From an uncultured Alphaproteobacteria bacterium (GTDB lineage Bacteria; Pseudomonadota; Alphaproteobacteria; RF32; CAG-239): a stretch of DNA of 64,000 nucleotides. The notes under the pieces are model-generated. The model did not search any database, was not told the origin of the DNA, and saw nothing but the letters and a program-made list of their open reading frames with translations. Below are positions 6,383 to 29,824 of this stretch, one piece after another. The stretch lies in the NCBI GenBank assembly GCA_944392835.1, contig CALXYB010000002.1, positions 95,917 through 159,916 of the forward strand, in the 5' to 3' direction. Every line of letters begins with the position of its first letter. The first letter of the stretch is position 1. The translations under genes and the position numbers were made by a program.

Positions 6383-6388
6383 AAAAAA

Positions 6389-6484
6389 GAGGTGGAGAGC
6401 GCGCGACCTTAATCGATTCCGTTACGGTTGCTTCCTTCCGGACCTGACCGGGTTGGCGGAGAATTAACCCGCCGCCCTCCGTTA
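6389..6484 (-). ncRNA. ffs: Signal recognition particle 4.5S RNA (ffs)
   Basis: The minus strand reads GGTCAGGTCCGGAAGGAAGCAACCG, matching the conserved SRP RNA domain IV (CAGGUCCGGAAGGAAGCAGC). The ends can pair (GGAGGGCGG ... CGCGCUCUCC) and a T6 run follows. ffs-dnaX-ybaB-recR synteny supports the call. Confidence 0.8.
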
Positions 6485-13983: not shown

Positions 13984-14973
13984 CTAGAGGTCAAGAATGC
14001 CTTTCCGCTTTGTTTTGGGTTTTATGACCTTGATTTTGGGTTTTTTACCCTGCATCTCGCGCCAATCCCAAGGCATATAAAAGCGACCTTGCCACAAGCC
14101 CCTTTTGTTGGCTTGCGCCTGACGCTCATAAGGAACATAAATATCCGTATATTTACGGTAAGCAACTGCCCAACCTGCGTTTACCAAAGCGGCTCCTAAG
14201 TCATACTGTCCCAAAGCACATGTTCCAACCATATTGCCTTTGGAATCTTGTTGCATGACACGACACTCAAGCTCATTGGACGTAATCCAATTTTTGAGCC
14301 ACATTGCAGCTTCTCTGCCACAATTATACGAGCGTCCTTGATTGTCGGCGCAGGTTTGATTGGCTTCCGGCGCGTCTATGCCATAGAGCTTGAAATATCT
14401 TCCCTGAAGCTCCAACGTATCGGCATTGATTACGCGCGCCGAGCTATAAATTGCAGGAAAATTGTTGGGGTTAAAAGCAGGGGCTGCTTGTTGTTGCTGT
14501 CCGCCGCCAAAAGAACTCATAAACTGTTGGAAAGCATTTTGTTTTTGCGGTGCTTGCGCTTGTGGCTCCGGTCTTGCCTGAGAACCAATCTCCGATGAAA
14601 AGTTTTCATCTAAAGAAGGTGTGTAAGTTTCTTCCATCATTATTACACTACCATTTTGCGGTGCTTGCTGGGCGTTGCCTTGCATACCTAAAAAACTGCG
14701 CAGAGATTGTCCAACGCCGCCAATGCCGTTATTAAAACCGCCAATAGCATAAACAATAAAAGCTAATATGGAGCCCACAACCAGAAAAGACGGCAAACAT
14801 CCCATTGCGCGCCAAGCCATTTTTCCGAAAATATAAAGCACGACCAAGCCGATTATCAGTCCGATAAAGCCGCTGCCTTGCAGTAACAAGCTACTGCTTT
14901 GTGTTCCGCTACCGCCAATAAATATCAAAATTAAGGCTCCGAGACCCAAAAGCGCTTTTTTCAGAAAAACCAT
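13984..14973 (-). CDS. Membrane-anchored thermonuclease (SNase)-like protein with Q/P-rich linker
   Basis: Three N-terminal TM helices, a low-complexity Q/P/A linker, an SNase-like C-terminal domain (TLELQGRYFKLYGIDAPE ... GLWQG) and a basic tail. Confidence 0.65.
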   Translation of the reverse strand: MVFLKKALLGLGALILIFIGGSGTQSSSLLLQGSGFIGLIIGLVVLYIFGKMAWRAMGCLPSFLVVGSILAFIVYAIGGFNNGIGGVGQSLRSFLGMQGNAQQAPQNGSVIMMEETYTPSLDENFSSEIGSQARPEPQAQAPQKQNAFQQFMSSFGGGQQQQAAPAFNPNNFPAIYSSARVINADTLELQGRYFKLYGIDAPEANQTCADNQGRSYNCGREAAMWLKNWITSNELECRVMQQDSKGNMVGTCALGQYDLGAALVNAGWAVAYRKYTDIYVPYERQAQANKRGLWQGRFYMPWDWREMQGKKPKIKVIKPKTKRKGILDL

Positions 14974-15132: not shown

Positions 15133-16158
15133 TTAATCAATTATCTTCATCGTAAATTTTTCATTTGTCGGTGCAGGAGCTTCGCTTTGCGGGGTCGGTA
15201 TCATACCGGTTTTGCGTTTTTGCTCCAAGATATCAATAATCATATCAAGTTCTGCTGCTGAGGCATATTGCAAAACAACCTTACCCCCGCCTTGTTTGCT
15301 TGGCGAAATTTTGATACGGAGACCAAGATTTTTATTCAAATCTTTTTCTATCTCCACAATATCTTCATCTTTTGCCTTTTTGGGTTCTTTGGGCTCGGGA
15401 TTTTTTTGCTTGGCAACGAGCTCCTCAACCTGACGGACATTTAAATCTTTTGCAATTATCTGTTTTGCCAAGGCTTCTGCATTTTCCAGACCAACCAAGG
15501 CTCTGGCATGTCCGGCAGATAATTTACCCTCACGCACCATTACTTTTACCGAATCGGGCAGGGATAATAAGCGCAAAGTATTGGCAACATGACTGCGTGA
15601 TTTTCCGACAATTTGTGCCAAAGCTTCCTGCGTGTGCGAAAACTCATCTATCAAACGCTGAAAGCCCTCGGCTTCTTCTATGGCAGATAAATTCTCGCGC
15701 AAGAGGTTTTCAACCAAAGCGACTTCCAAGACCTCTTTGTCGTCCATCTCTTTGACAATCACGGGAACAGACTTTAGTCCGGCAAGTTTGGAGGCACGCC
15801 AACGACGCTCTCCGGCAATAATCTCATATTTATCACCTTTGCGACGAACCAGCAAAGGCTGCAAAACGCCTTTTTCCTTGATTGATTCAACCAAAGCATT
15901 AAGCGCTTCTTCATCAAAATCCTTGCGCGGTTGAAAAGGGCTCGGATAAAGAGAATCTATGGCAACAGTATCATCAGCTGGTTGAACGGTTTGGGTCGGT
16001 GTATCATTTAAGGCCTCATCCAGATTAAATTCGCTATCACCTAACAAAGCTCCCAAGCCACGGCCCAAACTCTTTCTTTTGCCGTTGTGTGATGTTTCTT
16101 CGTGTTTGGGAGTATCGCTCAAAATATCTAAATCATCCAAATTTGAATTTTCTAACAT
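15133..16158 (-). CDS. parB: Chromosome partitioning protein ParB
   Basis: ParB box GERRWRA, an HTH and a C-terminal dimerisation domain. Confidence 0.93.
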   Translation of the reverse strand: MLENSNLDDLDILSDTPKHEETSHNGKRKSLGRGLGALLGDSEFNLDEALNDTPTQTVQPADDTVAIDSLYPSPFQPRKDFDEEALNALVESIKEKGVLQPLLVRRKGDKYEIIAGERRWRASKLAGLKSVPVIVKEMDDKEVLEVALVENLLRENLSAIEEAEGFQRLIDEFSHTQEALAQIVGKSRSHVANTLRLLSLPDSVKVMVREGKLSAGHARALVGLENAEALAKQIIAKDLNVRQVEELVAKQKNPEPKEPKKAKDEDIVEIEKDLNKNLGLRIKISPSKQGGGKVVLQYASAAELDMIIDILEQKRKTGMIPTPQSEAPAPTNEKFTMKIID

Positions 16159-16931
16159 GCCAATAATTCCTTCTCTCTTTTCAAAACTTCGCCGGTTAGG
16201 CTAATATAGGCTTGTGAGCCCGGACATCTGAAATCATAAATCAAAACAGGTTTGCCGTGAGAGGGAGCCTCAGAAACACGCACATTTCTCGGAATGACGG
16301 TTTGGTATACTTTTTTGCCAAAGAAATTTCTGACATCGTCTTCAACCATTTGAGACAAATTGTTACGCTTGTCATACATAGTCAAGACTACACCTTGAAG
16401 CTCTAACTTTGGATTGAAAGCACGTTTAATTTGATTGATGTTGCGAATCAAATCCGTAATACCCTCAAGAGCCAAAAATTCGCATTGCAATGGTACAATG
16501 ACAGCATCTGCGGCAACCAGAGCATTGATGGTTACCAAGCTTAAAGACGGCGGACAATCTATCAAAACATAGTCATAGTTTATGACATCTTTGCCTAAAG
16601 CATTGCGCAAGGCAAATTCTCTGTGTTCTACATCAACCAATTCAACCTCGGCACCGGCAAGGTCCGCGGAAGAGGGCACCAGAGAGAAGTTTGGAATCTC
16701 TGTCCAAACAACGGCTTCGTTAATTCTTTTTTCGCCAAGAAGAACCTCATAAGATGATGCCATTCTGCCGGTTTTGTTGATACCCATTGAAGTTGTGGCA
16801 TTGCCCTGAGGGTCAAGATCAATTACCAAAACTTTTTTTCCGGCAGCAGCCATTGCGGTTGCCACATTAACCGTGGTGGTGGTTTTGCCAACACCGCCTT
16901 TACGATTCGCTATAGCAATAATTCTTGGCAT
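16152..16931 (-). CDS. parA: Chromosome partitioning ATPase ParA
   Basis: Deviant Walker A (KGGVGKTT). Confidence 0.93.
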   Translation of the reverse strand: MPRIIAIANRKGGVGKTTTTVNVATAMAAAGKKVLVIDLDPQGNATTSMGINKTGRMASSYEVLLGEKRINEAVVWTEIPNFSLVPSSADLAGAEVELVDVEHREFALRNALGKDVINYDYVLIDCPPSLSLVTINALVAADAVIVPLQCEFLALEGITDLIRNINQIKRAFNPKLELQGVVLTMYDKRNNLSQMVEDDVRNFFGKKVYQTVIPRNVRVSEAPSHGKPVLIYDFRCPGSQAYISLTGEVLKREKELLAC

Positions 16932-17560
16932 TATTTAACTCCTTTAAGTTTTTTGATTTCGGTTATCAATAAAATTGCGCCTTCATCGCTTTGTTTGCTC
17001 GGCACAGCTTCATAAGTAAAAGTCCAGCTCTTTTGAGCCTCTGCAATTTCTTCTTTGTATTTTTTTCCTTTGGGGAAAATACAAAGCGTTTTTTTTGATG
17101 AAAACTTTGATGCATAAAAAAGCAAATCTTTAAGTGAGCACATTGCTCTTGAGGTTATGACATCAACAGACGGGATTTTGATGTTTTCAATGCGGTCATT
17201 GATGATTTTTACATTGTTTATTCCGGTAAGATTCTTCACCTCATTTAAATACAGTGTTTTCTTAGCAATGCTTTCCACTAAAAAGAAATTTAAATACGGT
17301 GTTTTTTCTGCTGCCATTATTGCCAGCACCATTCCCGGAAAACCAGCCCCAGAGCCGAAATCAACGACATTTCTGGCAGTATCCGGAATATATTTAAACA
17401 GCTGAGCAGAGTCTAAAAAATGTCTGTTCCAAGCATCCTCTAAAGACGCATTGCTGACCAGATTAAACTTTTTTTGCCACTCATGAAGAGAGGCCTCGTA
17501 AGTTTTCAAACGCTCAAATGTTTCACGTGAAACATTGTATGTGTCCATAAATTTTTTCAT
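16931..17560 (-). CDS. rsmG: 16S rRNA m7G527 methyltransferase RsmG (GidB)
   Basis: SAM motif DFGSGAGFPG. It sits in the gidA-gidB-parA-parB cluster. Confidence 0.9.
   Translation of the reverse strand: MKKFMDTYNVSRETFERLKTYEASLHEWQKKFNLVSNASLEDAWNRHFLDSAQLFKYIPDTARNVVDFGSGAGFPGMVLAIMAAEKTPYLNFFLVESIAKKTLYLNEVKNLTGINNVKIINDRIENIKIPSVDVITSRAMCSLKDLLFYASKFSSKKTLCIFPKGKKYKEEIAEAQKSWTFTYEAVPSKQSDEGAILLITEIKKLKGVK
17519..17534. other. parS centromere site (perfect TGTTTCACGTGAAACA palindrome) inside rsmG
   Basis: Exact 16-bp match to the universal chromosomal parS consensus. Confidence 0.85.
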
Positions 17561-17618
17561 AAAATATTTATATATTTTTTCAATTTAATTTAAAACCCCA
17601 TTTATGAAGTTATAAACA

Positions 17619-17662
17619 CAAAAAAAGTCTTTATTTTAAAAAGAATCTTAAAACAAAGACTT
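17619..17662 (-). terminator. Putative rho-independent terminator after the PHP gene
   Basis: Stem aagtcttt/aaagactt followed on the minus strand by T7; the loop is rather long. Confidence 0.45.
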
Positions 17663-17709
17663 AGACAGCGTTATTTGACTCAAAATCTGAAGATTATTTT
17701 ATACAAAAA

Positions 17710-18528
17710 TTACTTCTGAAGCTTCCAGCGATTCGTGTAGTTTAATTCGGTCAGAAGATTCTCAGCTTCAGCGAAGTATCTTCCGAGCAAATCAACAGAG
17801 TGGGCATCATCGTTAATAACAATCGGAACATCTCTTTTGGCCAGCTCTTTCAGCATCCATGTATGCGGATGTTGCTCTCCGGCTTTGGTCCAGCCACTCG
17901 TATTTAACTCAAAGGGGTGTTTGGTCTTATCTAATGCTTCTATGACCATCCATTTATATTCATCCCATTCCGGCTCCAAACCTAACCCGAAAATTTTGAT
18001 AACATCTAAATGCGCGATGAAATCAAAATAACCGCTTTTTATAGATTCTATGACATTCAGCCAATAGTTCTTTATGCCGTCCTTCAAGGTTTCATCATCT
18101 ACTTGAATATTTGACCATTTCATGTGGTAAATATTCTGAACCCAGCTGGCATCATGATTCATTAAGTTATGAGTTGAGCCTATAAGATAATCTACATTGA
18201 GGCGATTCTTCAGTTTTTCAAAATCGCGGCGCCAATCTGCTGATTTGTAATAATCAACCTCAAAACCGACATAAACTTTTATTTTATGCCTTGCTGCGGC
18301 TTCTCTTATCTTATCGGCGGTCTTTAAATACACCGTTTCGGCCTTGGCAAAGTCGTCAAAATTCTGAGATGACCAGCAATATGACCCGGGCTTGCAAATT
18401 AGGTGATTGGATATGCCTAATTCCGTAAATCCGATTGATTCGGCTTTATCCATCATTTCATCAGGAGAATTATGCCCATCGTAGATGCCAAAATTATTTG
18501 TATGCGTGTGATAAGAAAAAGTTTGCAT
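17710..18528 (-). CDS. PHP-domain phosphoesterase (histidinol-phosphatase/YcdX-like)
   Basis: N-terminal H-x-H metal motif (YHTHTNN) and further His/Asp clusters (STHN, IAHLD, DDAHS) typical of PHP. Confidence 0.7.
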   Translation of the reverse strand: MQTFSYHTHTNNFGIYDGHNSPDEMMDKAESIGFTELGISNHLICKPGSYCWSSQNFDDFAKAETVYLKTADKIREAAARHKIKVYVGFEVDYYKSADWRRDFEKLKNRLNVDYLIGSTHNLMNHDASWVQNIYHMKWSNIQVDDETLKDGIKNYWLNVIESIKSGYFDFIAHLDVIKIFGLGLEPEWDEYKWMVIEALDKTKHPFELNTSGWTKAGEQHPHTWMLKELAKRDVPIVINDDAHSVDLLGRYFAEAENLLTELNYTNRWKLQK

Positions 18529-19157
18529 TATTTTAACCCCAAAATTTCATATACATCTTTATGGCACAAATCATCTAATTCTGCTTTCAACCCCATTCCC
18601 GTATTGATTAGTTTTTGAACAAGATCTTGGGGTAATTTATATCTTTGGCCTATGGCTTGAGCTCTTTTTTCAAAGGGTATCATTGACAGACCTTCAAATA
18701 GCCTATCTGTGAACTGAACAATACGATCGTAAACATCGTATTCCCAATTTTTCAATATTTCCCGAGCCTCAAGAATATCTGCTTTGGGGTAAGAAGGATA
18801 ATCGTCTACATCAATATTTTTTCCAGGAAAAGTATGACTTAAACAAGTGCGGGCAGGGCGCTCCCAGCCCATTGACATGAGCTCCTGATAACCAACAAGT
18901 CCGTGAAAATGACCTATTTTCTTCTCATTATATTTTTTCCCATAATCATGCAAAAGACCGCAAATATATGCCGTCTCAGGATTTACCTCTTTTATGTTTG
19001 CAGCAATGGCGCGGGAAGCAAAAGCAATGCCTTGTGTGTGAAAAATATATTCATCCATATAAACGAAATTATCATTTTCTTGTCTATATCTTAATCCATC
19101 CCACCACAGGCGCATCGCCTCACGCATATCAGGACATTTTAGAGAAAGTATTAGCAT
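18528..19157 (-). CDS. HD-domain phosphohydrolase (YqeK-like), paralog 1
   Basis: HD superfamily motifs H..x(n)..HD (IFHTQG ... GLLHDYGK). Confidence 0.7.
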   Translation of the reverse strand: MLILSLKCPDMREAMRLWWDGLRYRQENDNFVYMDEYIFHTQGIAFASRAIAANIKEVNPETAYICGLLHDYGKKYNEKKIGHFHGLVGYQELMSMGWERPARTCLSHTFPGKNIDVDDYPSYPKADILEAREILKNWEYDVYDRIVQFTDRLFEGLSMIPFEKRAQAIGQRYKLPQDLVQKLINTGMGLKAELDDLCHKDVYEILGLK

Positions 19158-19160
19158 AGG

Positions 19161-19778
19161 CTAGTTTACTCCCAATAAGCGATAAATATCGCAACCGCAA
19201 CGCCTATCAAAATAGTTTTTTAATCTTAAAGCCTGGCGATAGCGTTTTTTGATGAGTATTGTAGGGAGTCTATATTTGTCCTTTACATAAGCCATACGTT
19301 CTTTAATCGTACCAAAGCTCATACCGGTTACAAGCAAATCACAAAGCTGAATCAATCGGTCATAGTCGTTATATTCAATTGAGGATAGGATTTTTTTTGT
19401 CTTACGCATTTCTGGATAAGTGTACTCAGTATACTTAAAATCTTTATCAGGAAAAGTGTGGGTTAAACAAACTCTGGCAACTTCATCAAAGCCTAATTTG
19501 TTCATCTCCTTATAGCCGGTCAGGCCATGAAAATATTGTTTGCTATCGGCATCGCATATCATCTTACCATAATCATGCAACAAACCAAATATATAAGCCT
19601 TCTGAACATCCAGATATTGTAATCTTGAGGCAATCATCTCCGCGCAACAAGCAACCAAACAGCAATGGCTCCGATAAGATTTTTCAAAATAAAAAGCAAA
19701 ACGCGGTTGTTCTTCACGCATTTTGACCAAACCATCGTCAAATAAGTCAAGTGCTTGCTTTATGCTCGGACAAGTCAT
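19161..19778 (-). CDS. HD-domain phosphohydrolase (YqeK-like), paralog 2
   Basis: Colinear with paralog 1 (GLLHDYGK, HGLTGY, CLTHTFP). The 4-nt gap to mnmG indicates a tandem duplication in the same operon. Confidence 0.7.
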   Translation of the reverse strand: MTCPSIKQALDLFDDGLVKMREEQPRFAFYFEKSYRSHCCLVACCAEMIASRLQYLDVQKAYIFGLLHDYGKMICDADSKQYFHGLTGYKEMNKLGFDEVARVCLTHTFPDKDFKYTEYTYPEMRKTKKILSSIEYNDYDRLIQLCDLLVTGMSFGTIKERMAYVKDKYRLPTILIKKRYRQALRLKNYFDRRCGCDIYRLLGVN

Positions 19779-19781
19779 TTC

Positions 19782-21638
19782 TCACCTCTTTACATAACCC
19801 AAAACTGCTGTTATGGCCGCCGGCGTTACCCCAGGGATTCGCGAAGCTTCGCCAATGGTTGCCGGACGAACCTTGCTTAGCTTAGCAACCATCTCTCGCG
19901 ATAAGCCGCCTATTTTTGAATAATCTATATCATCTCTCAATTTCAGTTTTTCATCTTTTTTGAAAACTTCAATGTCCGCCATTTGGCGTTTGATATATCC
20001 GGCATAGCGTGCATCAATCTCTATCTGCTCATAAACATCGGCCGGAATATCTGACAGCTCGGGAAAGATTTGACCAATTGTTTCACGTGAAACACCGTCA
20101 TAAGACATTACATTAAAGGCTGTTCTGTGTGTGCCGTCTTTTTTGGTATGAATCCCGAATTTTTCAAGCTCGTTCGGCGTGATTGTCAGGCTTTCGCTTA
20201 TGCTGCGATAATGGCGAATTTTATCTCTTTTGGCTTTAAATACAGTGTATCTATGCTCGCCGACACAGCCGATTTCGTAGCCTTGCTCCGTCAAACGCGC
20301 ATCTGCATTATCCGCACGCAAGAATAACCGATATTCTGAACGAGATGTAAACATACGATAGGGCTCATCAACGCCTTTGGTAATTAAATCATCAACCATT
20401 ACGCCAATATAGGCGTTGCTACGGTCAATGAAAAATTCACGACCTTTGCCTTCAGCTTTTAAGGCCGCATTTACACCTGCTAATAACCCCTGTGCTGCAG
20501 CTTCTTCATAGCCGGTTGTGCCGTTAATCTGACCTGCCAAAAAGAGGTTTGGAGCCTTTTTGACCTCAAGCGTATGACTGAGCTCTTGCGGATCAACATA
20601 GTCATATTCAATAGCATAAGCAAAACGCAAAATTTCAACATTCTCCAAACCCTTCATTGTATGAATGAAGGCATCCTGAACATCTGCCGGAAGTGAGGTT
20701 GAAATACCGTTCGGATAAACAACATCCGTATTCAAACCTTCAGGCTCCAGAAAAATCTGGTGGCTGGTGCGGTCGGCAAATTTGACCAGCTTATCTTCAA
20801 TGCTTGGGCAATATCTCGGACCAACGCCGGTAATCAAACCAGAGAACAATGCGCATTTGGAAAAGTTATCTCTGATTATTTTATGCGTTTCCTCATTGGT
20901 TTGTGTGATGTGGCATTCTATTTGCGGATTGGTAATCTTTTCCGTTAAATAAGAAAAAGGCTCGGAATTTTCATCGCCGCTTTGGGTTTCCAAAATATCC
21001 CAATTTATGGTTTTGCCATTCAGGCGGGCAGGGGTTCCTGTCTTCAAACGGCCAACTTTGAGCCCCAAAGACTTTAAATACGGTGTTATACCGACACAAG
21101 CTGCATCTCCAACACGACCTCCCGGCGTGGCAACATGCCCCGTGAACATAATGCCGTTCAAAAAAGTGCCGGTTGTTAAAACAACTGCTCCGGCTTCGTA
21201 GGCTGTTCCATCTGCCAAGGTTACGCCGACAACGCTATTGTCTTTTATCAGCAAACCTTCTACCGCCGCTTCAATCAGGGTTAAATTTTTCTGCTCTTGC
21301 AAAGCCTCTAACATATATTTACGATAAAGTTCTCTATCTGCTTGCGCGCGAGGGCCTCTTACTGCCGGTCCTTTGGAGGCGTTTAACATACGAAATTGTA
21401 TGCCCGCCTTATCAATGACTTTACCCATTAAGCCATCAAGCGCGTCAATTTCTCTGACTAAATGTCCTTTGCCTAAACCACCGATTGCCGGATTGCAAGA
21501 CATCTCGCCAATGCGGTCAATGCGATGTGTGATTAACGCGGTTTTTGCACCTATTCTGGCTGCTGCCGCGCAAGCCTCACAACCGGCATGTCCGCCGCCG
21601 ACAACAATGACATCAAATTTATTATCTTTATCGCTCAT
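19782..21638 (-). CDS. mnmG: tRNA uridine-5-carboxymethylaminomethyl synthesis enzyme MnmG (GidA)
   Basis: FAD-binding motif [13 protein letters not shown] in a 618 aa GidA. Confidence 0.95.
20079..20094. other. parS centromere site (perfect TGTTTCACGTGAAACA) inside mnmG
   Basis: Exact 16-bp consensus palindrome. Confidence 0.85.
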
Positions 21639-21705
21639 TTATTTTGCCTTTTTTATTTTGCTGTATTCTATCATGTAAATCTTATTAACCAGTTAATATG
21701 TCAAC

Positions 21706-21741
21706 AGCAAATAAAGACCCGAACAAAATGTTCAGGTCTTT
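21706..21741 (-). terminator. Putative terminator downstream of mnmE
   Basis: 12-bp stem with one mismatch (aaagacccgaac / gttcaggtcttt) flanked by T-rich sequence. Confidence 0.4.
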
Positions 21742-21755
21742 ATTCTTATTTTTTA

Positions 21756-23102
21756 TTATTTTCCGATACAGAAACTACCGAAAATCTTATTTAATATATC
21801 ATCAACTTCTATGCGGCCGGTAATCTTACTCAAGCCTCTTGCAGCAAGCCGTATATCCTCTGCTGAAAGCTCTATCTCTTTATCAAAAGAAAAACGCTCC
21901 AGATTATCCAAAGTTTCGGCTAAAGCCTCACGATAACGTTGGCGCGTGATAAGCAAATTAGAATTTGCTGTAAATCTTTCTTTGATTTGCTGATATATAA
22001 CTTCCATTAAGTCGGCAATACCTTGTTTGTGTTTTGCAGAGATAACAACACAACTTTGTTTTTTGAGATTTGAACATTGTTCAAAAGTTAAATTATCAGA
22101 TTTGTTCGCAACATATATCGCTTTGTTTTTAAAAGAATTTTTAATATTGTCAAAGATTTGAACAGAGTCTTTTGAAGCATCAAATAAACAAAGAACCAAA
22201 TCAGCATCAGCGATTTTGCGGAAAGCAATTTCTATACCTTGTTTCTCAATTTCTTCTTCTACTTCTCTAATGCCTGCCGTATCCGTAAACATTACGGGAT
22301 AACCTTTAATATCCAAATGAACATCTACAGCGTCTCGTGTGGTTCCGGCAATGGATGATACGATTGCTGCTTCACGATTGACAACAGTGTTCAACAAACT
22401 TGATTTGCCGGCATTCGGCGGACCAACAATAACAACACGAAAACCCTCACGTAATCTTTCGCCGATTGAATCAGTGTTCAAGTGCTTAGAAATGGCTGTT
22501 TTAAGTTTAAATACATCGTTCAAAAGTTTATCAACCAACTCTTGCGGAATGTCCTCATCCGGAAAATCTATATAAGCCTCAAGATAAGCCATTATCTTAA
22601 TCAGCTCTTCTCTCCAGCCGTCATACAGATTTTTTAAACCGCCTTCCATTTGGCGCATGGCATATTTTTGTTGTTCAGATGTTTCAGAATCAATCAGGTC
22701 TGCTAAACCTTCGGCTTCTGTTAAATCCATTTTGCCGTTGTGAAAAGCACGTCTGGAAAATTCGCCGGGCTCAGCCATACGAAAGTCCGGAATTTTGCTT
22801 AGGTTCTCTAGAACTGAAGCAATTACCGCCTTAGAGCCGTGAGTCTGAAATTCTACAATATCTTCTCCCGTAAAAGAATGGGGAGCCTTAAAATAAAGCA
22901 GCAAACATTTATCCAATGTTTCACGGGAAACAATGTCTTTGATATCCGTAAAATATGCATAACGCGGTTTTAGGCTCTTTTCTTTCAAGTTTGTCAGCTT
23001 GGCAACGGCTTCTTTTGCTTTTGCTCCAGAAACACGAATAACAGCCACACCAGATTTGCCATAAACCGTTGACAGGGCATAAATTGTTTGATTATCCATC
23101 AT
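21756..23102 (-). CDS. mnmE: tRNA modification GTPase MnmE (TrmE)
   Basis: G-domain motifs (GPPNAGKSSL, DTAG, NKSD) and the C-terminal CxGK motif. Confidence 0.95.
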   Translation of the reverse strand: MMDNQTIYALSTVYGKSGVAVIRVSGAKAKEAVAKLTNLKEKSLKPRYAYFTDIKDIVSRETLDKCLLLYFKAPHSFTGEDIVEFQTHGSKAVIASVLENLSKIPDFRMAEPGEFSRRAFHNGKMDLTEAEGLADLIDSETSEQQKYAMRQMEGGLKNLYDGWREELIKIMAYLEAYIDFPDEDIPQELVDKLLNDVFKLKTAISKHLNTDSIGERLREGFRVVIVGPPNAGKSSLLNTVVNREAAIVSSIAGTTRDAVDVHLDIKGYPVMFTDTAGIREVEEEIEKQGIEIAFRKIADADLVLCLFDASKDSVQIFDNIKNSFKNKAIYVANKSDNLTFEQCSNLKKQSCVVISAKHKQGIADLMEVIYQQIKERFTANSNLLITRQRYREALAETLDNLERFSFDKEIELSAEDIRLAARGLSKITGRIEVDDILNKIFGSFCIGK

Positions 23103-23288
23103 AACTCCTTTAAAAATCTGCGCTTAGTATTATACCAAAGCTCGTTTTTGGCAAGATTTAAAATAAGGCCGTTTTTTTGACTCAGGAGCGGTTTTTTACT
23201 CCGTCTTAATAAATGTATTATAATATGTCCTAAAATCTTCTGTACGAGGCTTAAAAAGACTCATCAATTTTAAACCAAAAGGTGTAAA

Positions 23289-23969
23289 ATGAACAAAATT
23301 AAACCAGAACTTATTATATGGGATTATGACGGCGTTTTGGCCGATAGCGAAAAATTATGGATTAAGATTTGGCAAAATATGCTTAATGAAAATTTTGACC
23401 TCGGATGGGATTTTGAAACCGCTGATAAATTTTTGGGCGGATTGGCCGTTAAAACAAAAATTAAAAATTTGCAAAAACTCGGCATAACTATTGATGATGA
23501 TTTTTTGCGCGAACTTAAAAGACGCGAAACCTATGATATTGAGCATAACCTGAAAGCAACCCCCGGCGTGGAAGAGATTTTGCAACAAACAAAAATTCCT
23601 TATTGTCTGGCAACCGGCGGATTCTTAGCCAAAACAGAGGCTAAACTCAAGGCAATGAACTTCAAAAAATACTTTCAGGATGACCATATTTTTACGGCAG
23701 AGCAGGTGGAGCACGGCAAACCAGAGCCTGACCTCTTTCTCTTTTCTGCCAAGCAAATGAATGCTTTGCCGCAAAACACCATTGTTATTGAAGACTCTTT
23801 GCCCGGTTTGCAAGCAGCTCAAGCTGCTGGTATGTTACCGGTGGCTTTTGTCGGAAGCGAAATGAACTGCACGCCCGAATATCAGCAAAAAGTACGTGAG
23901 CTTGGTGTTGAGCATATCTTTTTGACAATGAAAGAACTTTCTGATTTTTTAAAAAATATTGACAAATAG
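23289..23969 (+). CDS. HAD-superfamily hydrolase (beta-phosphoglucomutase/phosphatase subfamily IA)
   Basis: Motif I DYDGVL at the N-terminus, followed by a cap domain. Confidence 0.75.
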   Translation: MNKIKPELIIWDYDGVLADSEKLWIKIWQNMLNENFDLGWDFETADKFLGGLAVKTKIKNLQKLGITIDDDFLRELKRRETYDIEHNLKATPGVEEILQQTKIPYCLATGGFLAKTEAKLKAMNFKKYFQDDHIFTAEQVEHGKPEPDLFLFSAKQMNALPQNTIVIEDSLPGLQAAQAAGMLPVAFVGSEMNCTPEYQQKVRELGVEHIFLTMKELSDFLKNIDK

Positions 23970-24018
23970 CCAAAAATATTCATAATCTCTCATAAGAATT
24001 ATATTAATTAATTATATT

Positions 24019-24786
24019 ATGAGTAGAAGATTTTTTAGCGACCAGTCAAAATCAGATTTTGGCTACGCAGTGAAAATTGTTTTGGTGCTTGGCATTTTAA
24101 TCGGCACATTGGTTTACACCTTGAATGTCAGTAAAGAATTTCTCTTGTTTGGAATACTGACGTTTGTTGTATCTTTCATTGTGAACTTTTTTACAGATCG
24201 TTCGCGACTGAAAACAAGATGCCATTTCGGAAATGCTTTTTTCCTGGCTGTCGGCATTATGGCGATAATGACTTTGTTGCCAATCTATTTTTGGATCAAA
24301 GTGGGTATTGCCGTAATTTTTGGTGTTTTAGTAAATATCTATTGGGTTTTTATTGGTTCTCTTCTGTTTATTAGAAATACAGAAGAAATAACCATAGATA
24401 TTAATAATATTATGGCAACTAATGTCGTTTTTATTGTGATTTTCTTCGTATGCATTTTTTTCAGATTTCTGGATAATATGGCTGACAAAAAAGAGTTGGC
24501 ACGGGAAGAAAAACAGAATGCAGACATTGAAAAAGCTGAGCCTAATGGGGTTTATACTGTTTTTAAAGACGGAGAAACAACTTTTATTGTTAAAAAAGTT
24601 ATCCCTATCGTTGCAAGCGGCTATACCAAAGTTGTTTTGATTAGTGAGGATAATATGTTCTTCACAATCAACAGAAATATTGAGGAAGCCATATTGACCG
24701 AACCCGGACATATTGTTTGGGTGGAGGTTGATGAAGGTGGTTACTGCCTTGATTTTGACAACCAAAATATTGTCGTTATAAAATAA
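24019..24786 (+). CDS. Hypothetical membrane protein (4-5 TM) with soluble C-terminal domain; markedly AT-rich
   Basis: Hydrophobic helices followed by a charged linker and a beta-rich C-terminal domain of about 100 aa. I could not assign a family. Confidence 0.55.
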   Translation: MSRRFFSDQSKSDFGYAVKIVLVLGILIGTLVYTLNVSKEFLLFGILTFVVSFIVNFFTDRSRLKTRCHFGNAFFLAVGIMAIMTLLPIYFWIKVGIAVIFGVLVNIYWVFIGSLLFIRNTEEITIDINNIMATNVVFIVIFFVCIFFRFLDNMADKKELAREEKQNADIEKAEPNGVYTVFKDGETTFIVKKVIPIVASGYTKVVLISEDNMFFTINRNIEEAILTEPGHIVWVEVDEGGYCLDFDNQNIVVIK

Positions 24787-24806
24787 AATTATTAACTAAA
24801 AAAAAC

Positions 24807-24845
24807 AAGCGCCGGATTTTTTATAATTCGGCGCTTGGCTTTTTA
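24807..24845. terminator. Bidirectional rho-independent terminator
   Basis: Stem aagcgccg/cggcgctt with T-runs on both sides, between two convergent genes. Confidence 0.6.
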
Positions 24846-25727
24846 AAAACTTAAAACAGAATCTGAGGCTGTGTCTAAAATCGCTTCTTTGCCCAAAGGT
24901 AAGGTCATTTGCGGCAAGGTATGTCCCGTATCAAAACCTGCAATAACCGGAATATGACGCAAAGCCTCAAAAGCTTGTAATTTTTGCTTTACGGCTGCCA
25001 CATCAACAAGGCTGTTTTGCATAAACCTACCGATGATTAAGCCTCTGATATTTTTTGCAAAATCGTAATTAAACAAAGCCCACAGGTTACGCATAAACAT
25101 ATTAAAAGTTTCTGTACCGCATAAGTCATCTTCTTCGGCAATGATTATCATATCATCAAAAACCGGATAATATTTTGTTCCGGCAAGCATTATTTGGCTG
25201 CATAGATTGCCTCCGACAAGACGACCTTTGGCTTTTCCTTCATTGATGATTGTTAGCCCAGAATTGGCAAAGGTTTGCGTTTTGGAAATATGCGTATCCA
25301 TATAAGCCTTTGCCGGATAGTAATTTGCTCCTTTTTGCTCTAATGCTATAGAGATAAAATTTTTTATTCCATAATCCTCTACATCACCGTTTAAGGCTTT
25401 GAGATTCGGCCCTAAATATTGAACTATGCCAGTTTGCGCTAACAAAGCATTCAGTAAAACCGTGATGTCCGAATAACCACACAAGGGCTTGGTTATTTTA
25501 GAAAAATCAAGCTTTGGTAAAAGCTCTACGGAGTTAAAACCGCCGCGCGAGGCTATAATAACCTCCGCTTCGCTTGTTTGTGCCAGCATAAAGTCTTCTA
25601 ATTTACTTTTTGAAGTAAAAAACTCTACACTAATATCATTATCTGCCAAGCGTTTGACGGCGGTTTCTGTCTCTTGCTCCGATTTTAAGGGCAGAGAAGG
25701 GGAAATTACTCCGATTTTGTGTTGCAT
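24843..25727 (-). CDS. ldcA: LD-carboxypeptidase (muramoyltetrapeptide carboxypeptidase, peptidase S66)
   Basis: 294 aa, colinear with the LdcA family (peptidase S66). Confidence 0.75.
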   Translation of the reverse strand: MQHKIGVISPSLPLKSEQETETAVKRLADNDISVEFFTSKSKLEDFMLAQTSEAEVIIASRGGFNSVELLPKLDFSKITKPLCGYSDITVLLNALLAQTGIVQYLGPNLKALNGDVEDYGIKNFISIALEQKGANYYPAKAYMDTHISKTQTFANSGLTIINEGKAKGRLVGGNLCSQIMLAGTKYYPVFDDMIIIAEEDDLCGTETFNMFMRNLWALFNYDFAKNIRGLIIGRFMQNSLVDVAAVKQKLQAFEALRHIPVIAGFDTGHTLPQMTLPLGKEAILDTASDSVLSF

Positions 25728-25729
25728 TA

Positions 25730-27565
25730 TCAGAATCCTGCGGCTGTTTGTATTTTATTTGACATATAAGCACGTTGTACTTGTCTGCTTACAACATTTT
25801 CATCATTGCGGATGATGTTGGCAAGTCTTTTATAAAAAATGCTTCCGGGTGCTAAAATGCGGTCAAAATTGCCATTATCTGCAAAACGCAACAAGTTGCC
25901 TTTTACTCTTTCCTTCTGAGCGGTCTTTTCTTCTTCAGACATCGGTTGCCCCGTCATAAAAGAGTAAAAACGATGTACGGCCGCAGCTTCCAAAGCATCT
26001 CTTGAGGAGATTGAGGCAACATCATTGAGCAAATTATCGTCTATCTTGACACTGCCGTTTACCAAGTCACGATAGCCCAAAACATCACCGTTTTCCTTAA
26101 CACCCCAGATTTGAGCTTGCGCCGTGCGGTAATCAAAGCTTTCTATAACTTTGCGGCGTGCATTGATGTCTTCCTGATTGAACTCTTTATGTTTGCTTGC
26201 TTCATCAAAAACTTTTCCTAAGCCCTCTTTAATACGGCGAGCATAAACAATTTGCGAGCTTCCGCCCTCAATCTTTGCACCTGTTTCCAACAAAACAACA
26301 GCTAACATAAAGGAAACTTTGGGCATAGCCTCGCCGCTTCTTAAAGCCTCGGCAATTTGTTTTCTATCCATATTTTCCGTATATTCGTCACCAAGCATTT
26401 TGGCAAAAGCCGGCATCTTGTTAGAACCCATCGGCACCATATGATCCAGAAGATGATTATATTCATTGTCCGACTTGGTAGTGTGAATCTTCTTCATCTC
26501 GGTTTCAAAAACCGCTCTTGTTTGCGGATTGTCAAAAATCTGTGATGTCAGAGACTGAGGATTCTCCAAAATATCGGCCATAAAAGCAAAAATCGGCTTC
26601 TCTGCTTCTACACTTACCTGAATGACGGAGCTGTCTTTTAATAAGTCATTGGCTTGCATGGCATGAATTGAAGCCAGCTGCAAAGCTCCGAGCTCTGTTT
26701 CCGGTGTGCCTTTTTCCTGATTGTAAGCTCTTTGTTTTTCCAACAATTTCATAACTTTTTTCAGCATTCTGACATCATTTTGAAACTGTTGTTCAACTTG
26801 TGTTGAAAACTCGGTTAAAACATCTTTATGCAACAAAGAAAGTTCTTTTACCGTGTTCATGGATAAATCCTTAAACTCCATACCTTGCGGCATAAATTCT
26901 TTGTTGATTAAGTGATGCCAACGGGCTTTCAAAGATTTTGCAGCCAGAGATTTTTTCTCAAACATATCTTTTTTCATCTCTTTTTCATGCGCTTTTAAGG
27001 CTGCAATTTTTTCCGGCGTATCATATCCGGGAAGTGTCATAGCAATAACTTTCGGATAAATTTTGCTGTACAAATAAAGCGGCGGACCGTAAACAAAGGG
27101 GTCGCAAATCTCGGGGCCGGTCTGGTTATCGGTATTTACGCGGCCAGACATCAGAGATAAATTGAACTTTTCGCCAAAATGATGTGCTCTTGCGGCTTGG
27201 TTAACAAACTTGTAGCAAGAGTGAAACATATTATAGTCATTTTCTTCAACCGTTGCCTCCGCACCACGTTTGTCTCTTTGGCGCATGGGGCCGAGGTGGT
27301 CGGAAAAGTCAAAACGAAAATCTTTTTTCAGCTGTTCATAAAGCTCTTTTGACAATAATTTTCTATTTTCTTCTTCCACTACTGCTGCGTAAGTATCATT
27401 GACGCGTTTTAAAATCTTATACATAAAGCTTTCGGCATAAGGAAAAAGTTTCGGATTATAAGGGTTTTTACTTCCGTCGCTATAAGTTTCTCCTAAAGAA
27501 GCTTCTGTATCAAGGTATGAAAATTCGGGTTTTTTGGCAAGTACGGCCTGACTATATTTACTCAT
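25730..27565 (-). CDS. Large hypothetical protein (611 aa), no recognisable domain
   Basis: Long clean ORF separated from LdcA by 2 nt. The sequence is charged and has no signal peptide or TM helix. Confidence 0.6.
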   Translation of the reverse strand: MSKYSQAVLAKKPEFSYLDTEASLGETYSDGSKNPYNPKLFPYAESFMYKILKRVNDTYAAVVEEENRKLLSKELYEQLKKDFRFDFSDHLGPMRQRDKRGAEATVEENDYNMFHSCYKFVNQAARAHHFGEKFNLSLMSGRVNTDNQTGPEICDPFVYGPPLYLYSKIYPKVIAMTLPGYDTPEKIAALKAHEKEMKKDMFEKKSLAAKSLKARWHHLINKEFMPQGMEFKDLSMNTVKELSLLHKDVLTEFSTQVEQQFQNDVRMLKKVMKLLEKQRAYNQEKGTPETELGALQLASIHAMQANDLLKDSSVIQVSVEAEKPIFAFMADILENPQSLTSQIFDNPQTRAVFETEMKKIHTTKSDNEYNHLLDHMVPMGSNKMPAFAKMLGDEYTENMDRKQIAEALRSGEAMPKVSFMLAVVLLETGAKIEGGSSQIVYARRIKEGLGKVFDEASKHKEFNQEDINARRKVIESFDYRTAQAQIWGVKENGDVLGYRDLVNGSVKIDDNLLNDVASISSRDALEAAAVHRFYSFMTGQPMSEEEKTAQKERVKGNLLRFADNGNFDRILAPGSIFYKRLANIIRNDENVVSRQVQRAYMSNKIQTAAGF

Positions 27566-27622
27566 TTTGGTTTTCTCTTTCTCGTTTTGTTGTTTTCTGT
27601 TCTTTTGTAATTTTTGCTTTAT

Positions 27623-27656
27623 CCTCTGATTATCAAATTACCCAAATAATCAGAGG
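27623..27656. promoter_or_regulatory. Perfect 11-bp inverted repeat (cctctgattat-N12-ataatcagagg) in the 5' region of the 611-aa gene
   Basis: Read directly from the sequence, 58-90 bp upstream of the start codon. Confidence 0.4.
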
Positions 27657-28004
27657 CTCATAAGCTCCAAAACCGAAAGAGTTGCTGTATTATTCTTTAT
27701 TTTCATTTTCTGCTATATCTTTACATTAAAAAAATTAACCATCAAAAAACAAAGCTTGTTGATTTTTCATCCTCCAAGCACCCAAGCCTTGCCAAAAAGT
27801 AAAAGTGCTTAGAGGTTCATAATCAACAACAACAAAATGCTGATTAGCAGAATTTTTGCAGAAATAAGGGCGAAAGCTTCCGGTAAAAATTCGGAAGTTT
27901 TGAAAATAGAATATGTTTTGCCAAAAAATGACATCTTTCGCCTTTGTTTTTGTTAAACCGCGTTAATTATATGGACAGAAAATATTTTATGTCAACTTAT
28001 TTTA

Positions 28005-28034
28005 TAAAAAAAAATCCCTCTTTTGTGAGGGATT
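28005..28034 (-). terminator. Rho-independent terminator of rho
   Basis: Stem aatccctc/gagggatt followed on the minus strand by T8, directly 3' of rho. Confidence 0.7.
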
Positions 28035-28044
28035 TTTTATTTTT

Positions 28045-29298
28045 TTAAGAATTCATGGTATTGAAAAAGTCTTCGTTGTCTTTGGATTGTCTGAGCTTAT
28101 CCAACAAAAATTCCATACCATCGGTCATACCCATTTGCATCAAGACACGACGCAATACCCACATTTTGGAAAGTGTGGCTTTGTCTACCAACAACTCTTC
28201 CTTACGAGTGCCTGAACGCGTAATATCTATGGTCGGGAAGAGACGCTTATCGGTTAACTTTCTATCCAAAATGATTTCGGAGTTACCTGTTCCTTTGAAC
28301 TCCTCAAAAATAACCTCATCCATACGAGAACCCGTATCAATCAAAGCTGTGGCAATGATTGTTAAAGAACCTCCTTCCTCTACATTACGTGCAGCACCGA
28401 GCAGACGTTTCGGTCTTTGCAGAGCATTGGCGTCAACACCTCCGGTTAAAACTTTACCGGATGAAGGAATAACCGTATTATATGCACGGCCCAAACGTGT
28501 GATGGAGTCAAGCAAGATGACAACATCTTTTTTGGTTTCTACCAAACGCTTGGCTTTTTCAATAACCATTTCGGCAACCTGAACATGGCGCGCAGCCGGC
28601 TCATCAAAGGTGGAAGAAATAACCTCACCTTTAACTGAACGGCTCATATCCGTTACTTCTTCCGGACGTTCATCAATCAATAAAACCATTAAATAAACTT
28701 CAGGGTGGTTGGTGGCTATGGCATGTGCAATGTTTTGCAACATTACGGTTTTACCTGTTCTCGGAGGAGCAACAATCAGACCGCGTTGACCTTTGCCTTG
28801 CGGGGCAATCAGGTCAATAATGCGCGTGGTATAGTCTTTTTCGCCGCAGATGATATCAAAGTCTAGTTTTTTGATCGGATAAAGCGGGGTTAGGTTATCA
28901 AAATTTACACGAAGTTTTGATTTTTCGGGATCTTCAAAGTTAATGGTGTTAATCTTGGTTAGAGCAAAATAACGTTCATTATCTTTTGGACCACGGATTT
29001 CACCTTCAACCGTATCTCCGGTGCGCAGACCAAATTTTTTAACTTGAGCCGGTGATACATAAATATCATCAGGGCTGGCCAAATAATTGGATTCAGCAGA
29101 ACGCAAAAAACCAAAGCCATCTTGCAAAACTTCTATCGTTCCTTCGCCATAAATGGTTTGATCATCAGATGCCACTTTTTTCATAATGGCAAAAATTAAA
29201 TCCTGAACACGCATAGATGATGCGTCTTCTATTCCTAATTCCTCCGCTTGAGTTAATAACTCCTTGGGAGATTTTTGCTTTAAATCTTTTAAATGCAT
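28045..29298 (-). CDS. rho: Transcription termination factor Rho
   Basis: N-terminal RNA-binding domain and a RecA-like ATPase domain with Walker A GKT; 417 aa. Confidence 0.96.
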
Positions 29299-29824
29299 TG
29301 TAACCTTGATATATTATTGGGTGTGAAAGTAATTAAGAAAAGGGAAATATCCCTCTGTATAGTATTATTAGAATTACTGTATGTCTGTTTTATATTATTT
29401 AAATGAATGAAAGTCAATTAAATGTTGTTTGATTTTTATACACAGTCAAAAAGCCCCATATAAATATTTTTAAAATTTTAGTTGTTATTTGTATATCCCT
29501 GCTGTTTATGTGTATAAGTTTTTATTAACAGAGATATCCAAAAGTTAAAAGAATGTTAATAAGATTGTTAACGGAATTTAAGAATTATTAACGAATCGTT
29601 AACTTTGTTTTTCTTGATTCTGTAAACTTTAAATTGAGTATTTTGTTGATAAGTTTTTTTATCAACCCTTGTGCGAAAAAATATACCCCTGTGCGTAAAG
29701 TTGTATATTGGATTTTACATTGTGGTGATTAGTTTGTATAAATATGCAAGAGAGCTTAGTTATGCACAGTTTTGGGCTTGTTTGTGTATAAGTGAGTCAG
29801 GGTTTTGATTTTAAGGAATTTTTT
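29299..29824. other. Candidate chromosomal replication origin (oriC): AT-rich 0.5 kb region with DnaA-box-like and CtrA-box motifs
   Basis: Three exact copies of TTATACACA/TGTGTATAA (29436-29444, 29509-29517, 29783-29791) plus a 1-mismatch copy (29733-29741). A perfect CtrA box lies at 29588-29603. The region sits between rho and coaE-dnaQ. Confidence 0.55.
29588..29603. promoter_or_regulatory. CtrA-box consensus TTAA-N7-TTAAC
   Basis: ttaacgaatcgttaac, with extra overlapping TTAA half-sites upstream. Confidence 0.5.

Follow-up and report, generated by a model that had tools for sequence, protein, structure and literature searches.

Genes for HD-type phosphohydrolases and a PHP-type phosphoesterase in the mnmG–rsmG junction of uncultured gut Alphaproteobacteria

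Among described HD-domain hydrolases, one close point of comparison for the proteins discussed here is YqeK, the symmetrical Ap4A hydrolase of Firmicutes (structures 8jja and 8wmy, model TIGR00488), a small stand-alone protein whose gene lies in a conserved nadD-yqeK-rsfS neighbourhood. PgpH (4s1b) and HD-GYP proteins (4mcw, 9rc0), which are HDIG-type cyclic-dinucleotide phosphodiesterases, and the catalytically unclear HDOD domains (3hc1) also have the HDIG motif and ligands of the two-metal type. Other HD enzymes, for example the 5'-deoxynucleotidase YfbR and the NTP pyrophosphohydrolase YpgQ, are grouped with MutT-type NUDIX proteins as 'house-cleaning' hydrolases. Among PHP-fold proteins, the closest characterised structures are the HisJ/HisK enzymes of Thermus thermophilus (2yxo), Listeria (3dcp, 6nlr) and Lactococcus lactis (4gyf). 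The mnmG and rsmG genes (gidA and gidB) form a textbook junction, and a literature search found no paper that joins mnmG, rsmG and 'HD domain'.

The DNA analysed here, called the window, is a 64-kb stretch from an uncultured alphaproteobacterium; the corresponding loci of relatives were viewed at ±10 kb. As an earlier note on this DNA had reported, three open reading frames separate mnmG from rsmG and encode a pair of paralogous HD hydrolases together with one PHP phosphoesterase. All three lie on the minus strand. The features of the region are:

19782-21638, minus strand: mnmG (gidA), matching Pfam GIDA (E 2.4e-169) and both C-terminal MnmG domains; first gene of the proposed transcription unit
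19161-19778, minus strand: HD1, 205 amino acids, HDIG-type HD phosphohydrolase, paralogue group A
18528-19157, minus strand: HD2, 209 amino acids, paralogue of HD1, group B
17710-18528, minus strand: PHP gene, 272 amino acids, HisJ-family PHP phosphoesterase, paralogue group A
16931-17560, minus strand: rsmG (gidB), Pfam GidB E 3e-44; first gene past the cassette, with parA and parB behind it
17620-17662, minus strand: AU-rich 17-bp hairpin followed by UUUUU, RNA fold z = -3.5; plausible intrinsic terminator
21709-21745, minus strand: 17-bp hairpin directly 3' of mnmE, RNA fold z = -5.9; terminator-like
17609-17619, minus strand: conserved block GTGTTTATAAC, about 50 nt 5' of rsmG

The genes are tightly packed. 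HD1 starts 3 nt behind the mnmG stop codon (TGA-GAA-ATG) with AGAGG upstream, HD2 starts 3 nt behind HD1 (TAG-CCT-ATG), and the stop of HD2 overlaps the start of the PHP gene by 1 nt (TAATG), which confirms the packing described earlier and corrects the spacings of 4, 3 and 1 nt given for it. Shine-Dalgarno-like purine-rich motifs of the GGAG/AGAGG type precede the starts of the cassette genes. Hairpins were found only before mnmG and after the PHP gene. The upstream one lies in a minus-strand fold (21639-21760, MFE -29.3 kcal/mol) whose stability was reached by 0 of 200 shuffled sequences, and it likely bounds the mnmG transcription unit on its 5' side. The downstream one is a plausible intrinsic terminator closing that unit. 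The terminator that the earlier note placed after the PHP gene corresponds to this hairpin and its U-tract; it folds well, but the consensus terminator scan missed it because it contains fewer than three G-C pairs. Hairpins thus flank the block mnmG-HD-HD-PHP on both sides, and the packing behind mnmG together with the hairpin after PHP is compatible with a single transcription unit, co-transcription being deduced here from sequence. A sigma-70 consensus scan for internal promoters returned 20 sites as compared to 24.8 in shuffled controls and is thus uninformative.

The gap between the PHP gene and rsmG measures 149 nt in the window, and a gap of ca. 115-250 nt before rsmG is kept in most relatives. 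The hairpin in this spacer has an identical copy in locus L001 and similarly stable counterparts in L021, L022 and L032, and is weak in many other relatives; RNAalifold found no consensus pairs across the spacers, so the terminator structure is not conserved throughout the clade. A conserved RNA element in the spacer was also considered and dropped, since neither RNAalifold nor an Rfam search gave a match and the conservation consists of sequence blocks only. Across 16 loci with rsmG proteins only 52-87% identical to that of the window, the block at 17609-17619 keeps an invariant core TGTT-ATAA and, two positions downstream of it, an invariant T, which makes it a candidate for a promoter or other regulatory element of rsmG-parA-parB.

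HD1 and HD2 share 35% identity (E 2e-44) and both score above the Pfam HD cut-off of 22 bits (PF01966; 32.7 bits, E 1e-7 for HD1 and 30.5 bits, E 5e-7 for HD2). Pfam HDOD (PF08668) is also exceeded, at about 30 bits against a cut-off of 22.9, but this match is partial and covers only profile positions ca. 88-163 of 196, the part shared with HD domains. With the HDIG model TIGR00277 (cut-off 27.6 bits) HD1 scores 34.2 bits and HD2, at 25.6 bits, falls just below. Both proteins carry the motif LLHDYGK, and the ligand positions H38, H68-D69, H84, H107 and D140/D147 are conserved in 73-75 of 75 copies; this H...HD...H...H...D pattern predicts a two-metal site. The AF2 model of HD1 has a pLDDT of 94.

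The same ligand pattern is found in YqeK, which is also of similar size (ca. 190-215 amino acids) and has the nearly identical core motif GLLHDYAKK, as compared to GLLHDYGK in the HD proteins. The YqeK likeness proposed in the earlier note is real but weak: the significant profile match to 8jja (E 4e-6) is confined to the N-terminal motif region, HD1 reaches 14.8 bits with TIGR00488 (cut-off 70.15 bits) and HD2 gives no match. The C-terminal half of the HD proteins (YDRLIQLCD, R161, K187 and others) is family-specific and unlike YqeK. Their gene neighbours are also different: mnmG, a second HD gene, the PHP gene and rsmG take the place of the nadD neighbourhood, and nadD was not seen among the annotated neighbours of the cassette. 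PgpH, HD-GYP and HDOD proteins are merely 10-17% identical to HD1 and HD2, which possess no transmembrane, receiver or sensor domain and no GYP motif, and hence do not qualify as HD-GYP c-di-GMP phosphodiesterases. YfbR and YpgQ have a simpler H...HD...D ligand set and give lower structural scores. No close characterised homologue was found, any solved structure being at most 23% identical. HD1 and HD2 belong to an uncharacterised HDIG-type subfamily, which comprises 269 clusters (50% identity, E<=1e-30). Its genes are common in gut Firmicutes, spirochaetes and Chloroflexi, where they stand alone.

The PHP protein matches Pfam PHP (PF02811) with 63.5 bits against a threshold of 26.4 (E 4e-17), and the nine ligands of the trinuclear site (H7, H9, D17, H42, E90, H120, H173, D241, H243), all shared with HisJ/HisK, are invariant in 39 of 39 copies. 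Its AF2 model (pLDDT 96) has the same fold as these enzymes (TM 0.68-0.74) at similar length. An authentic histidinol-phosphate phosphatase that happens to be encoded in one operon with HD housekeeping enzymes to which it is unrelated would account for several of these observations: 2yxo is the top match in both sequence (E 1e-12) and structure (TM 0.74), followed by 3dcp and 4gyf, the broad model TIGR01856 (hisJ_fam) is passed, if marginally, with 92.1 bits against 90.2, and a 51%-identical homologue is labelled 'hisJ family' in one source. We nevertheless consider this reading unlikely. The protein stays well below the cut-offs of the HisJ equivalog models (64.3 vs 133 bits for NF005996, 106.5 vs 202 bits for PRK07328), and solved HisJ enzymes are merely 15-24% identical. 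Furthermore, the gene is present in zero to four tandem copies at this locus and the PHP tree contains at least two paralogue groups, of ancient origin, which is hard to square with a single biosynthetic step; and every PHP homologue whose context was inspected sits in the mnmG-rsmG junction beside HD genes. The PHP protein is thus HisJ-like in fold with a complete trinuclear metal site, yet scores below the HisJ equivalog cut-offs.

Chance can be dismissed as the origin of this arrangement, which is seen again in about 40 related genomes. In these species-level gut MAGs of uncultured Alphaproteobacteria the junction holds one to three HD genes and zero to four PHP genes, sometimes with a NUDIX or murA-like gene, and the order mnmE-mnmG-[HD x1-3][PHP x0-4]-rsmG-parA-parB was found in at least 35 genome loci and additionally in L087-L089. 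The first cassette gene begins about -22 to +47 nt from the mnmG stop codon; exceptions are L008 and L023, where NUDIX and murA-like genes intervene after mnmG, the NUDIX gene first. PHP is missing from seven otherwise complete junctions, so the HD proteins can do without it and the enzymes need not form a strict two-step relay.

The HD tree resolves at least three paralogue groups; a neighbour-joining tree puts HD2 in group B, which holds most of the single-copy loci. HD and PHP trees group related loci alike (for example window/L001/L002, L004/L029 and L028/L030/L038), as expected under vertical descent. The paralogue groups of both families are ancient and were lost differentially. Low dN/dS ratios of about 0.03 (HD1 0.027, PHP 0.038) indicate strong purifying selection. 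Synonymous (dS) and nucleotide divergence of HD1, HD2 and PHP exceed those of the flanks, and HD2 is the fastest-evolving gene of the region, its nucleotide identity to L001 falling to 0.69 as compared to 0.84-0.92 in the flanks. Recombination or allelic replacement of the cassette was rejected as the cause: the dip in identity is smooth, centred on HD2 and without sharp borders, so that faster evolution is sufficient. The cassette is not a recent insertion; it is ancient, vertically inherited, clade-wide and variable in copy number. The earlier note had named a widespread housekeeping cluster as the outcome that would speak against its reading, and within this clade of gut Alphaproteobacteria the trio is largely such a widespread, conserved cluster.

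Outside the clade the HD family keeps other company. At 46 HD loci from Firmicutes, spirochaetes and Chloroflexi, mnmG, mnmE and rsmG were never present within 10 kb, and a PHP gene was never near. When the neighbours at these 46 non-alphaproteobacterial loci were clustered and three annotated contexts added, NUDIX genes, found sporadically, were the only neighbour to recur, so that the idea of a conserved partner gene outside the clade was rejected. The NUDIX association recurs in several forms. NUDIX domains are fused to the HD family in five proteins (P0096, P0296, P0326, P0331, P0367), NUDIX genes lie near HD genes in L036 and L049 and within the mnmG-rsmG junction in L008 and L023, and the second HD locus of the L008 genome (L025) adjoins tuf and NUDIX. 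Further fusions join HD-family domains to an NT5C 5'-nucleotidase, to DHH-DHHA2 and to an AAA_33 kinase-like domain. The recurrent NUDIX and NT5C partners resemble the setting of house-cleaning hydrolases, and several paralogues in variable copy number are typical of pool-sanitising enzymes. The nucleotide theme is not exclusive, as fusions with GNAT acetyltransferases (5 of 20), with a peptidase, with a lipase and with a SUKH domain also occur.

We regard it as about an even chance that the trio is the local form of a lineage-specific extension of the mnmG unit, a constitutively co-expressed nucleotide phosphohydrolase cassette. Its products have intact active sites and would be cytoplasmic, metal-dependent phosphohydrolases. 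The HD proteins may act on a nucleotide, or on a substrate derived from one, by hydrolysing a phosphodiester or phosphoanhydride bond; a dinucleoside polyphosphate, a (d)NTP, an NDP-X or a linear or cyclic dinucleotide are candidates. PHP might then strip the leftover phosphomonoester. The nucleotide nature of the substrate and this order of action are, like the operon itself, what we infer. Transcription and translational coupling behind mnmG would provide constitutive, growth-linked expression, and the tie to MnmG would consist of position and co-expression with no shared chemistry. If the cassette is indeed of this kind, it flags a sizeable uncharacterised HD phosphohydrolase subfamily which in an uncultured gut alphaproteobacterial lineage has expanded to two or three tandem copies, with the NUDIX partnership as a concrete lead to the substrate (NDP-X, Np_nN or (d)NTP). 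The finding also shows that, within a single lineage, housekeeping genes can settle stably in the gidA-gidB junction, which offers a useful synteny marker for the clade. Nothing suggests a new kind of system, nor is a long-standing question opened at present.

A direct role of the HD and PHP proteins in the MnmE/MnmG tRNA U34 pathway, or in other tRNA or rRNA processing in the clade, appears improbable. Conceivable steps are the removal of phosphate from a side-chain donor or intermediate and the trimming of RNA ends, and the two folds do include RNase Y, YhaM, the HD domain of CCA-adding enzyme and the PHP-fold RNase P protein component 3, but these RNA-processing enzymes are weak or distant matches only. 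Position also speaks for such a role: the first cassette gene abuts the mnmG stop in nearly all of the ca. 38 junctions examined (L008 and L023 excepted), even at HD protein identities as low as 34-45%. However, these genomes all come from a single clade whose synteny is frozen, and the association with mnmG thus counts as one evolutionary observation. The HD loci of other phyla, the L008 genome's second HD copy beside tuf and a copy number atypical of a fixed modification pathway likewise speak against a role in tRNA modification. Of the earlier proposal of an mnmG-HD-HD-PHP operon that couples tRNA modification to the hydrolases, the layout agrees with the operon, but the functional coupling is not supported, as it comes down to that one event. 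A more specific partnership with MnmE/MnmG, in which the proteins would process a phosphorylated donor or intermediate for a non-canonical xm5U34 or remove a nucleotide by-product, would explain why the first cassette gene stays against the mnmG stop despite HD divergence to about 35% identity; we consider it decidedly improbable.

An anti-phage defence, toxin or mobile accessory module using the junction as an integration hotspot, as also suggested earlier, is very improbable: junction content differs between species, G+C is slightly lower in the cassette (0.36-0.39 vs ca. 0.43 in mnmG), divergence peaks in HD2 and one distant HD-family member is fused to the SUKH immunity-type domain, but the site is always occupied by the same few families under purifying selection, with concordant HD and PHP trees, without integrase, transposase or repeat boundary and, in several relatives, with a probable housekeeping murA alongside. 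A PADLOC-DB 2.0 scan of HD1, HD2, PHP and the relatives' NUDIX and murA-like proteins gave only insignificant motif-level matches of the HD proteins (Cas3 HD, HEC-01B; E ca. 2e-3 to 9e-3) and none for PHP, NUDIX and murA-like proteins, and the defence or toxin idea was rejected.

The MurA-like gene (472-483 amino acids, below murA cut-offs) lies in the junction of L008, L013, L018, L019, L023, L087 and L088. Homologues with 43-47% identity in distant Alphaproteobacteria adjoin obg and in one case Mur ligases, and it is therefore probably the divergent housekeeping murA of the lineage. An enolpyruvyl-nucleotide pathway built from MurA-like, NUDIX, HD and PHP proteins, as with NikO, was dropped for this reason. 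In L033, one HD copy appears to be decaying.

The HD and PHP genes form a compact cassette between mnmG and rsmG, the surrounding features of the window being as follows.

Features around the mnmG-rsmG junction
21756-23102, minus strand: mnmE
21709-21745: hairpin 3' of mnmE, 17 bp, z -5.9
19782-21638, minus strand: mnmG (Pfam GIDA)
19161-19778, minus strand: HD1, 205 aa (Pfam HD)
18528-19157, minus strand: HD2, 209 aa (Pfam HD)
17710-18528, minus strand: PHP, 272 aa (Pfam PHP)
17620-17662: AU-rich hairpin with U-tract 3' of PHP, 17 bp, z -3.5
16931-17560, minus strand: rsmG (Pfam GidB)
16152-16931, minus strand: parA
15133-16158, minus strand: parB
13984-14973, minus strand: SNase-domain protein, 329 aa

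The Pfam assignments and the 35% identity of HD1 to HD2 (E 2e-44) bear out the gene identities proposed in the earlier note, two HD paralogues and a PHP protein, and their position at the junction stands as well, but the spacings of 4, 3 and 1 nt given there need correction. Read directly from the sequence, the junctions are TGA-GAA-ATG for mnmG/HD1 (3 nt), TAG-CCT-ATG for HD1/HD2 (3 nt) and TAATG for HD2/PHP (1-nt overlap); purine-rich sequence lies on the 5' side of all three. The terminator that had been placed after PHP corresponds to the hairpin at 17620-17662, whose G-C pairs were too few for a consensus terminator scan to pick it up. With these tight junctions and hairpins after both mnmE and PHP, the suggested mnmG-HD-HD-PHP operon is a reasonable interpretation of the sequence. 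The cumulative GC skew has its minimum near 28-29 kb and gene orientation switches at about 23100-29800; the replication origin therefore probably lies a few kb upstream of mnmE, which would make the cassette origin-proximal and place it on the leading strand. The window also carries a bacterial small SRP RNA (Rfam RF00169, 60 bits; 6388-6483, minus strand) and, over its whole 64 kb, no tRNA genes.

More than 566 HD relatives came out of a pattern scan that took one genome from each species, and the best 80 of their loci were compared with the window's proteins by tblastn. Among these 80, HD genes are located between mnmG and rsmG in 35 MAGs from the guts of humans, mice, ruminants and other hosts, within the conserved string mnmE-mnmG-...-rsmG-parA-parB-SNase; their records bear the label uncultured Alphaproteobacteria, Azospirillaceae or 'Azospirillum sp.'. 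The closest relative, L001, shows 91-99% protein identity.

Gene content of the junction in the window and related loci (L numbers)
HD-HD-PHP: window, L001, L002, L089
HD-HD: L003
single HD: L012
HD-PHP: L007, L014
HD-PHP-PHP: L009, L010, L017, L042
HD x3-PHP: L004, L029
PHP-HD x3: L006
NUDIX-murA-like-HD-PHP-HD-HD-PHP: L023
HD-murA-like-PHP x4: L087

Except in L008 and L023, where NUDIX and murA-like genes come between, the distance from the mnmG stop to the start of the first cassette gene is about -22 to +47 nt; the gap 5' of rsmG is about 115-250 nt in most relatives. The SNase-domain gene is directly 3' of parB across the whole clade (39-88% identity), and the encoded protein has a hydrophobic region at its N terminus and, behind a Gln/Pro-rich linker, a staphylococcal-nuclease domain at its C terminus.

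In neighbour-joining trees the HD paralogues fall into at least three ancient groups, with HD1 in group A and HD2, like most single-copy loci, in group B; the PHP proteins form two groups. Related loci cluster alike from one tree to another, which indicates that the paralogues derive from old duplications with later differential loss, not from repeated acquisition. The second HD copy of L033 (10465-11075), broken up into two ORFs (89 and 116 aa), probably represents a frameshifted pseudogene and an instance of continuing loss of cassette members. The insertion into the junction proposed in the earlier note, taken as a recent event, is contradicted by this clade-wide, old arrangement, shared by the 35 MAGs, and by trees that argue for a vertical history. 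No sharp recombination borders were seen across 17710-19778 in the divergence profile of the window against L001.

The HD ligands H38, H68-D69, H84, H107 and D140/D147 are kept in 73-75 of 75 copies and the nine PHP metal ligands in 39 of 39; relative to L001, HD1 has a dN/dS of 0.027 and PHP one of 0.038. From their sequences, the cassette genes are predicted to encode functional enzymes. HD2 evolves fastest, its nucleotide identity to L001 falling smoothly to 0.69 as against 0.84-0.92 in the flanks. The dS values relative to L001 are about 1.7 in HD1 and PHP, saturated in HD2, and 0.35-0.99 in mnmE, mnmG, rsmG, parA and parB.

That PHP is a true HisJ is suggested by its modelled HisJ/HisK-like fold (pLDDT 96; TM 0.74 to 2yxo, 0.70 to 3dcp/6nlr, 0.68 to 4gyf) and by a narrow pass of the broad hisJ_fam model (92.1 bits, cut-off 90.2). 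The protein fails the HisJ equivalog (64 bits, cut-off 133) and PRK07328 (106 bits, cut-off 202). Moreover, all PHP homologues with inspected context lie within the mnmG-rsmG junction beside HD genes, in 0-4 copies, a pattern that argues against a single dedicated step of histidine biosynthesis. We consider a true HisJ unlikely.

HD1 and HD2 score above the Pfam HD cut-off and HD1 also passes the HDIG model, but none of the family models for characterised families claims them. The YqeK resemblance noticed earlier is confined to the H...HD motif region, where the best PDB sequence matches are found (HDOD 3hc1, 2e-7; YqeK 8jja, 4e-6), and the YqeK model itself is failed (14.8 bits against a cut-off of 70). 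Among 1.84 billion representatives searched by profile there are 2352 HD clusters at E 1e-3, 843 at 1e-10 and 269 at 1e-30. The HD and PHP proteins represent new subfamilies, as yet uncharacterised, within well-known superfamilies; no paper combining 'mnmG', 'rsmG' and 'HD domain' appeared in the literature searched.

Beyond the alphaproteobacterial clade the HD gene occurs as a single copy, chiefly in Lachnospiraceae, Oscillospiraceae, Treponema and Chloroflexi, and the loci inspected there have no conserved neighbour. The sole recurrent partner of the family is NUDIX: it is fused to HD in at least five proteins (P0096, P0296, P0326, P0331 and P0367), close to HD in L036 and L049, and within the mnmG-rsmG junction in L008 and L023. 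L025 (9338-10627), a second HD locus of the L008 genome and unlinked to it, reads tuf-NUDIX-HD, with a 3-nt gap between NUDIX and HD and the pair directly 3' of tuf. Further fusion partners are NT5C nucleotidase, DHH-DHHA2, AAA_33, GNAT (five), a tyrosine-phosphatase family, peptidase S51, GDSL, DUF429, SUKH and a second HD (HD-HD). The NUDIX partnership and these fusions point to a putative role in small-molecule phosphohydrolysis, most likely of nucleotides.

The explanation we favour, with about an even chance of being correct, is that the cassette encodes vertically inherited, copy-number-variable, active metal-dependent phosphohydrolases, probably for nucleotides or their derivatives. They would be expressed from the 3' end of the mnmG transcript, HD cleaving a diester or anhydride and PHP a monoester, and the link to mnmG would be co-expression, not chemistry. 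A direct part in MnmEG function or RNA processing, which the position behind mnmG might suggest, appears improbable; in the inspected loci outside the alphaproteobacterial clade, mnmG, mnmE, rsmG or PHP never occur near the HD gene.

A divergent MurA-like enolpyruvyl transferase (472-483 aa) is encoded inside the junction in L008 (7835-9286), L013 (10677-12101), L023 (6510-7937), L087 (1893-3320), L088 (3579-4997), L018 and L019; no copy was found in the 64-kb window. The gene scores 255-289 bits, below the NCBIfam murA cut-offs, and is labelled 'hypothetical protein' by NCBI. In other uncultured Alphaproteobacteria, homologues with 43-47% identity to it adjoin obg and, in a single case, Mur ligases, for which reason the enolpyruvyl-nucleotide pathway that the gene had initially suggested was rejected. 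Most simply, the gene would be the lineage's own divergent murA, and it may represent a distinct MurA lineage overlooked by annotation pipelines. Its presence means that housekeeping genes gather in the junction and therefore argues against a defence island. Although variable gene content could bring to mind the defence or toxin module once considered, the PADLOC scan was empty and mobility genes are absent from the cassette region, and a defence or mobile module is very improbable.

An alignment of the PHP-rsmG spacer (17561-17680, minus strand) with 15 related loci shows strongly conserved blocks, approximately GATTCAA..ACGGTGTTTAA, TTGTTTTAAGAGTCT, GTGTTTATAAC, GTTTTAAAT and TATATAAATA, in species that share only 50-70% protein identity. 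The GTGTTTATAAC block, at 17609-17619, has a core that is invariant in the 16 sequences (window plus 15 loci). Neither a consensus RNA structure nor an Rfam match was found for the spacer, which is probably a promoter or regulatory region of rsmG-parA-parB. Another small site of variation in this operon region is the mnmE-mnmG gap (window compared with L002-L005 and L088): it measures 117 nt in the window (21639-21755) and L001. In most relatives its length is about 570-740 nt, and in L088 (182-631) it holds an unannotated ORF of 149 aa.
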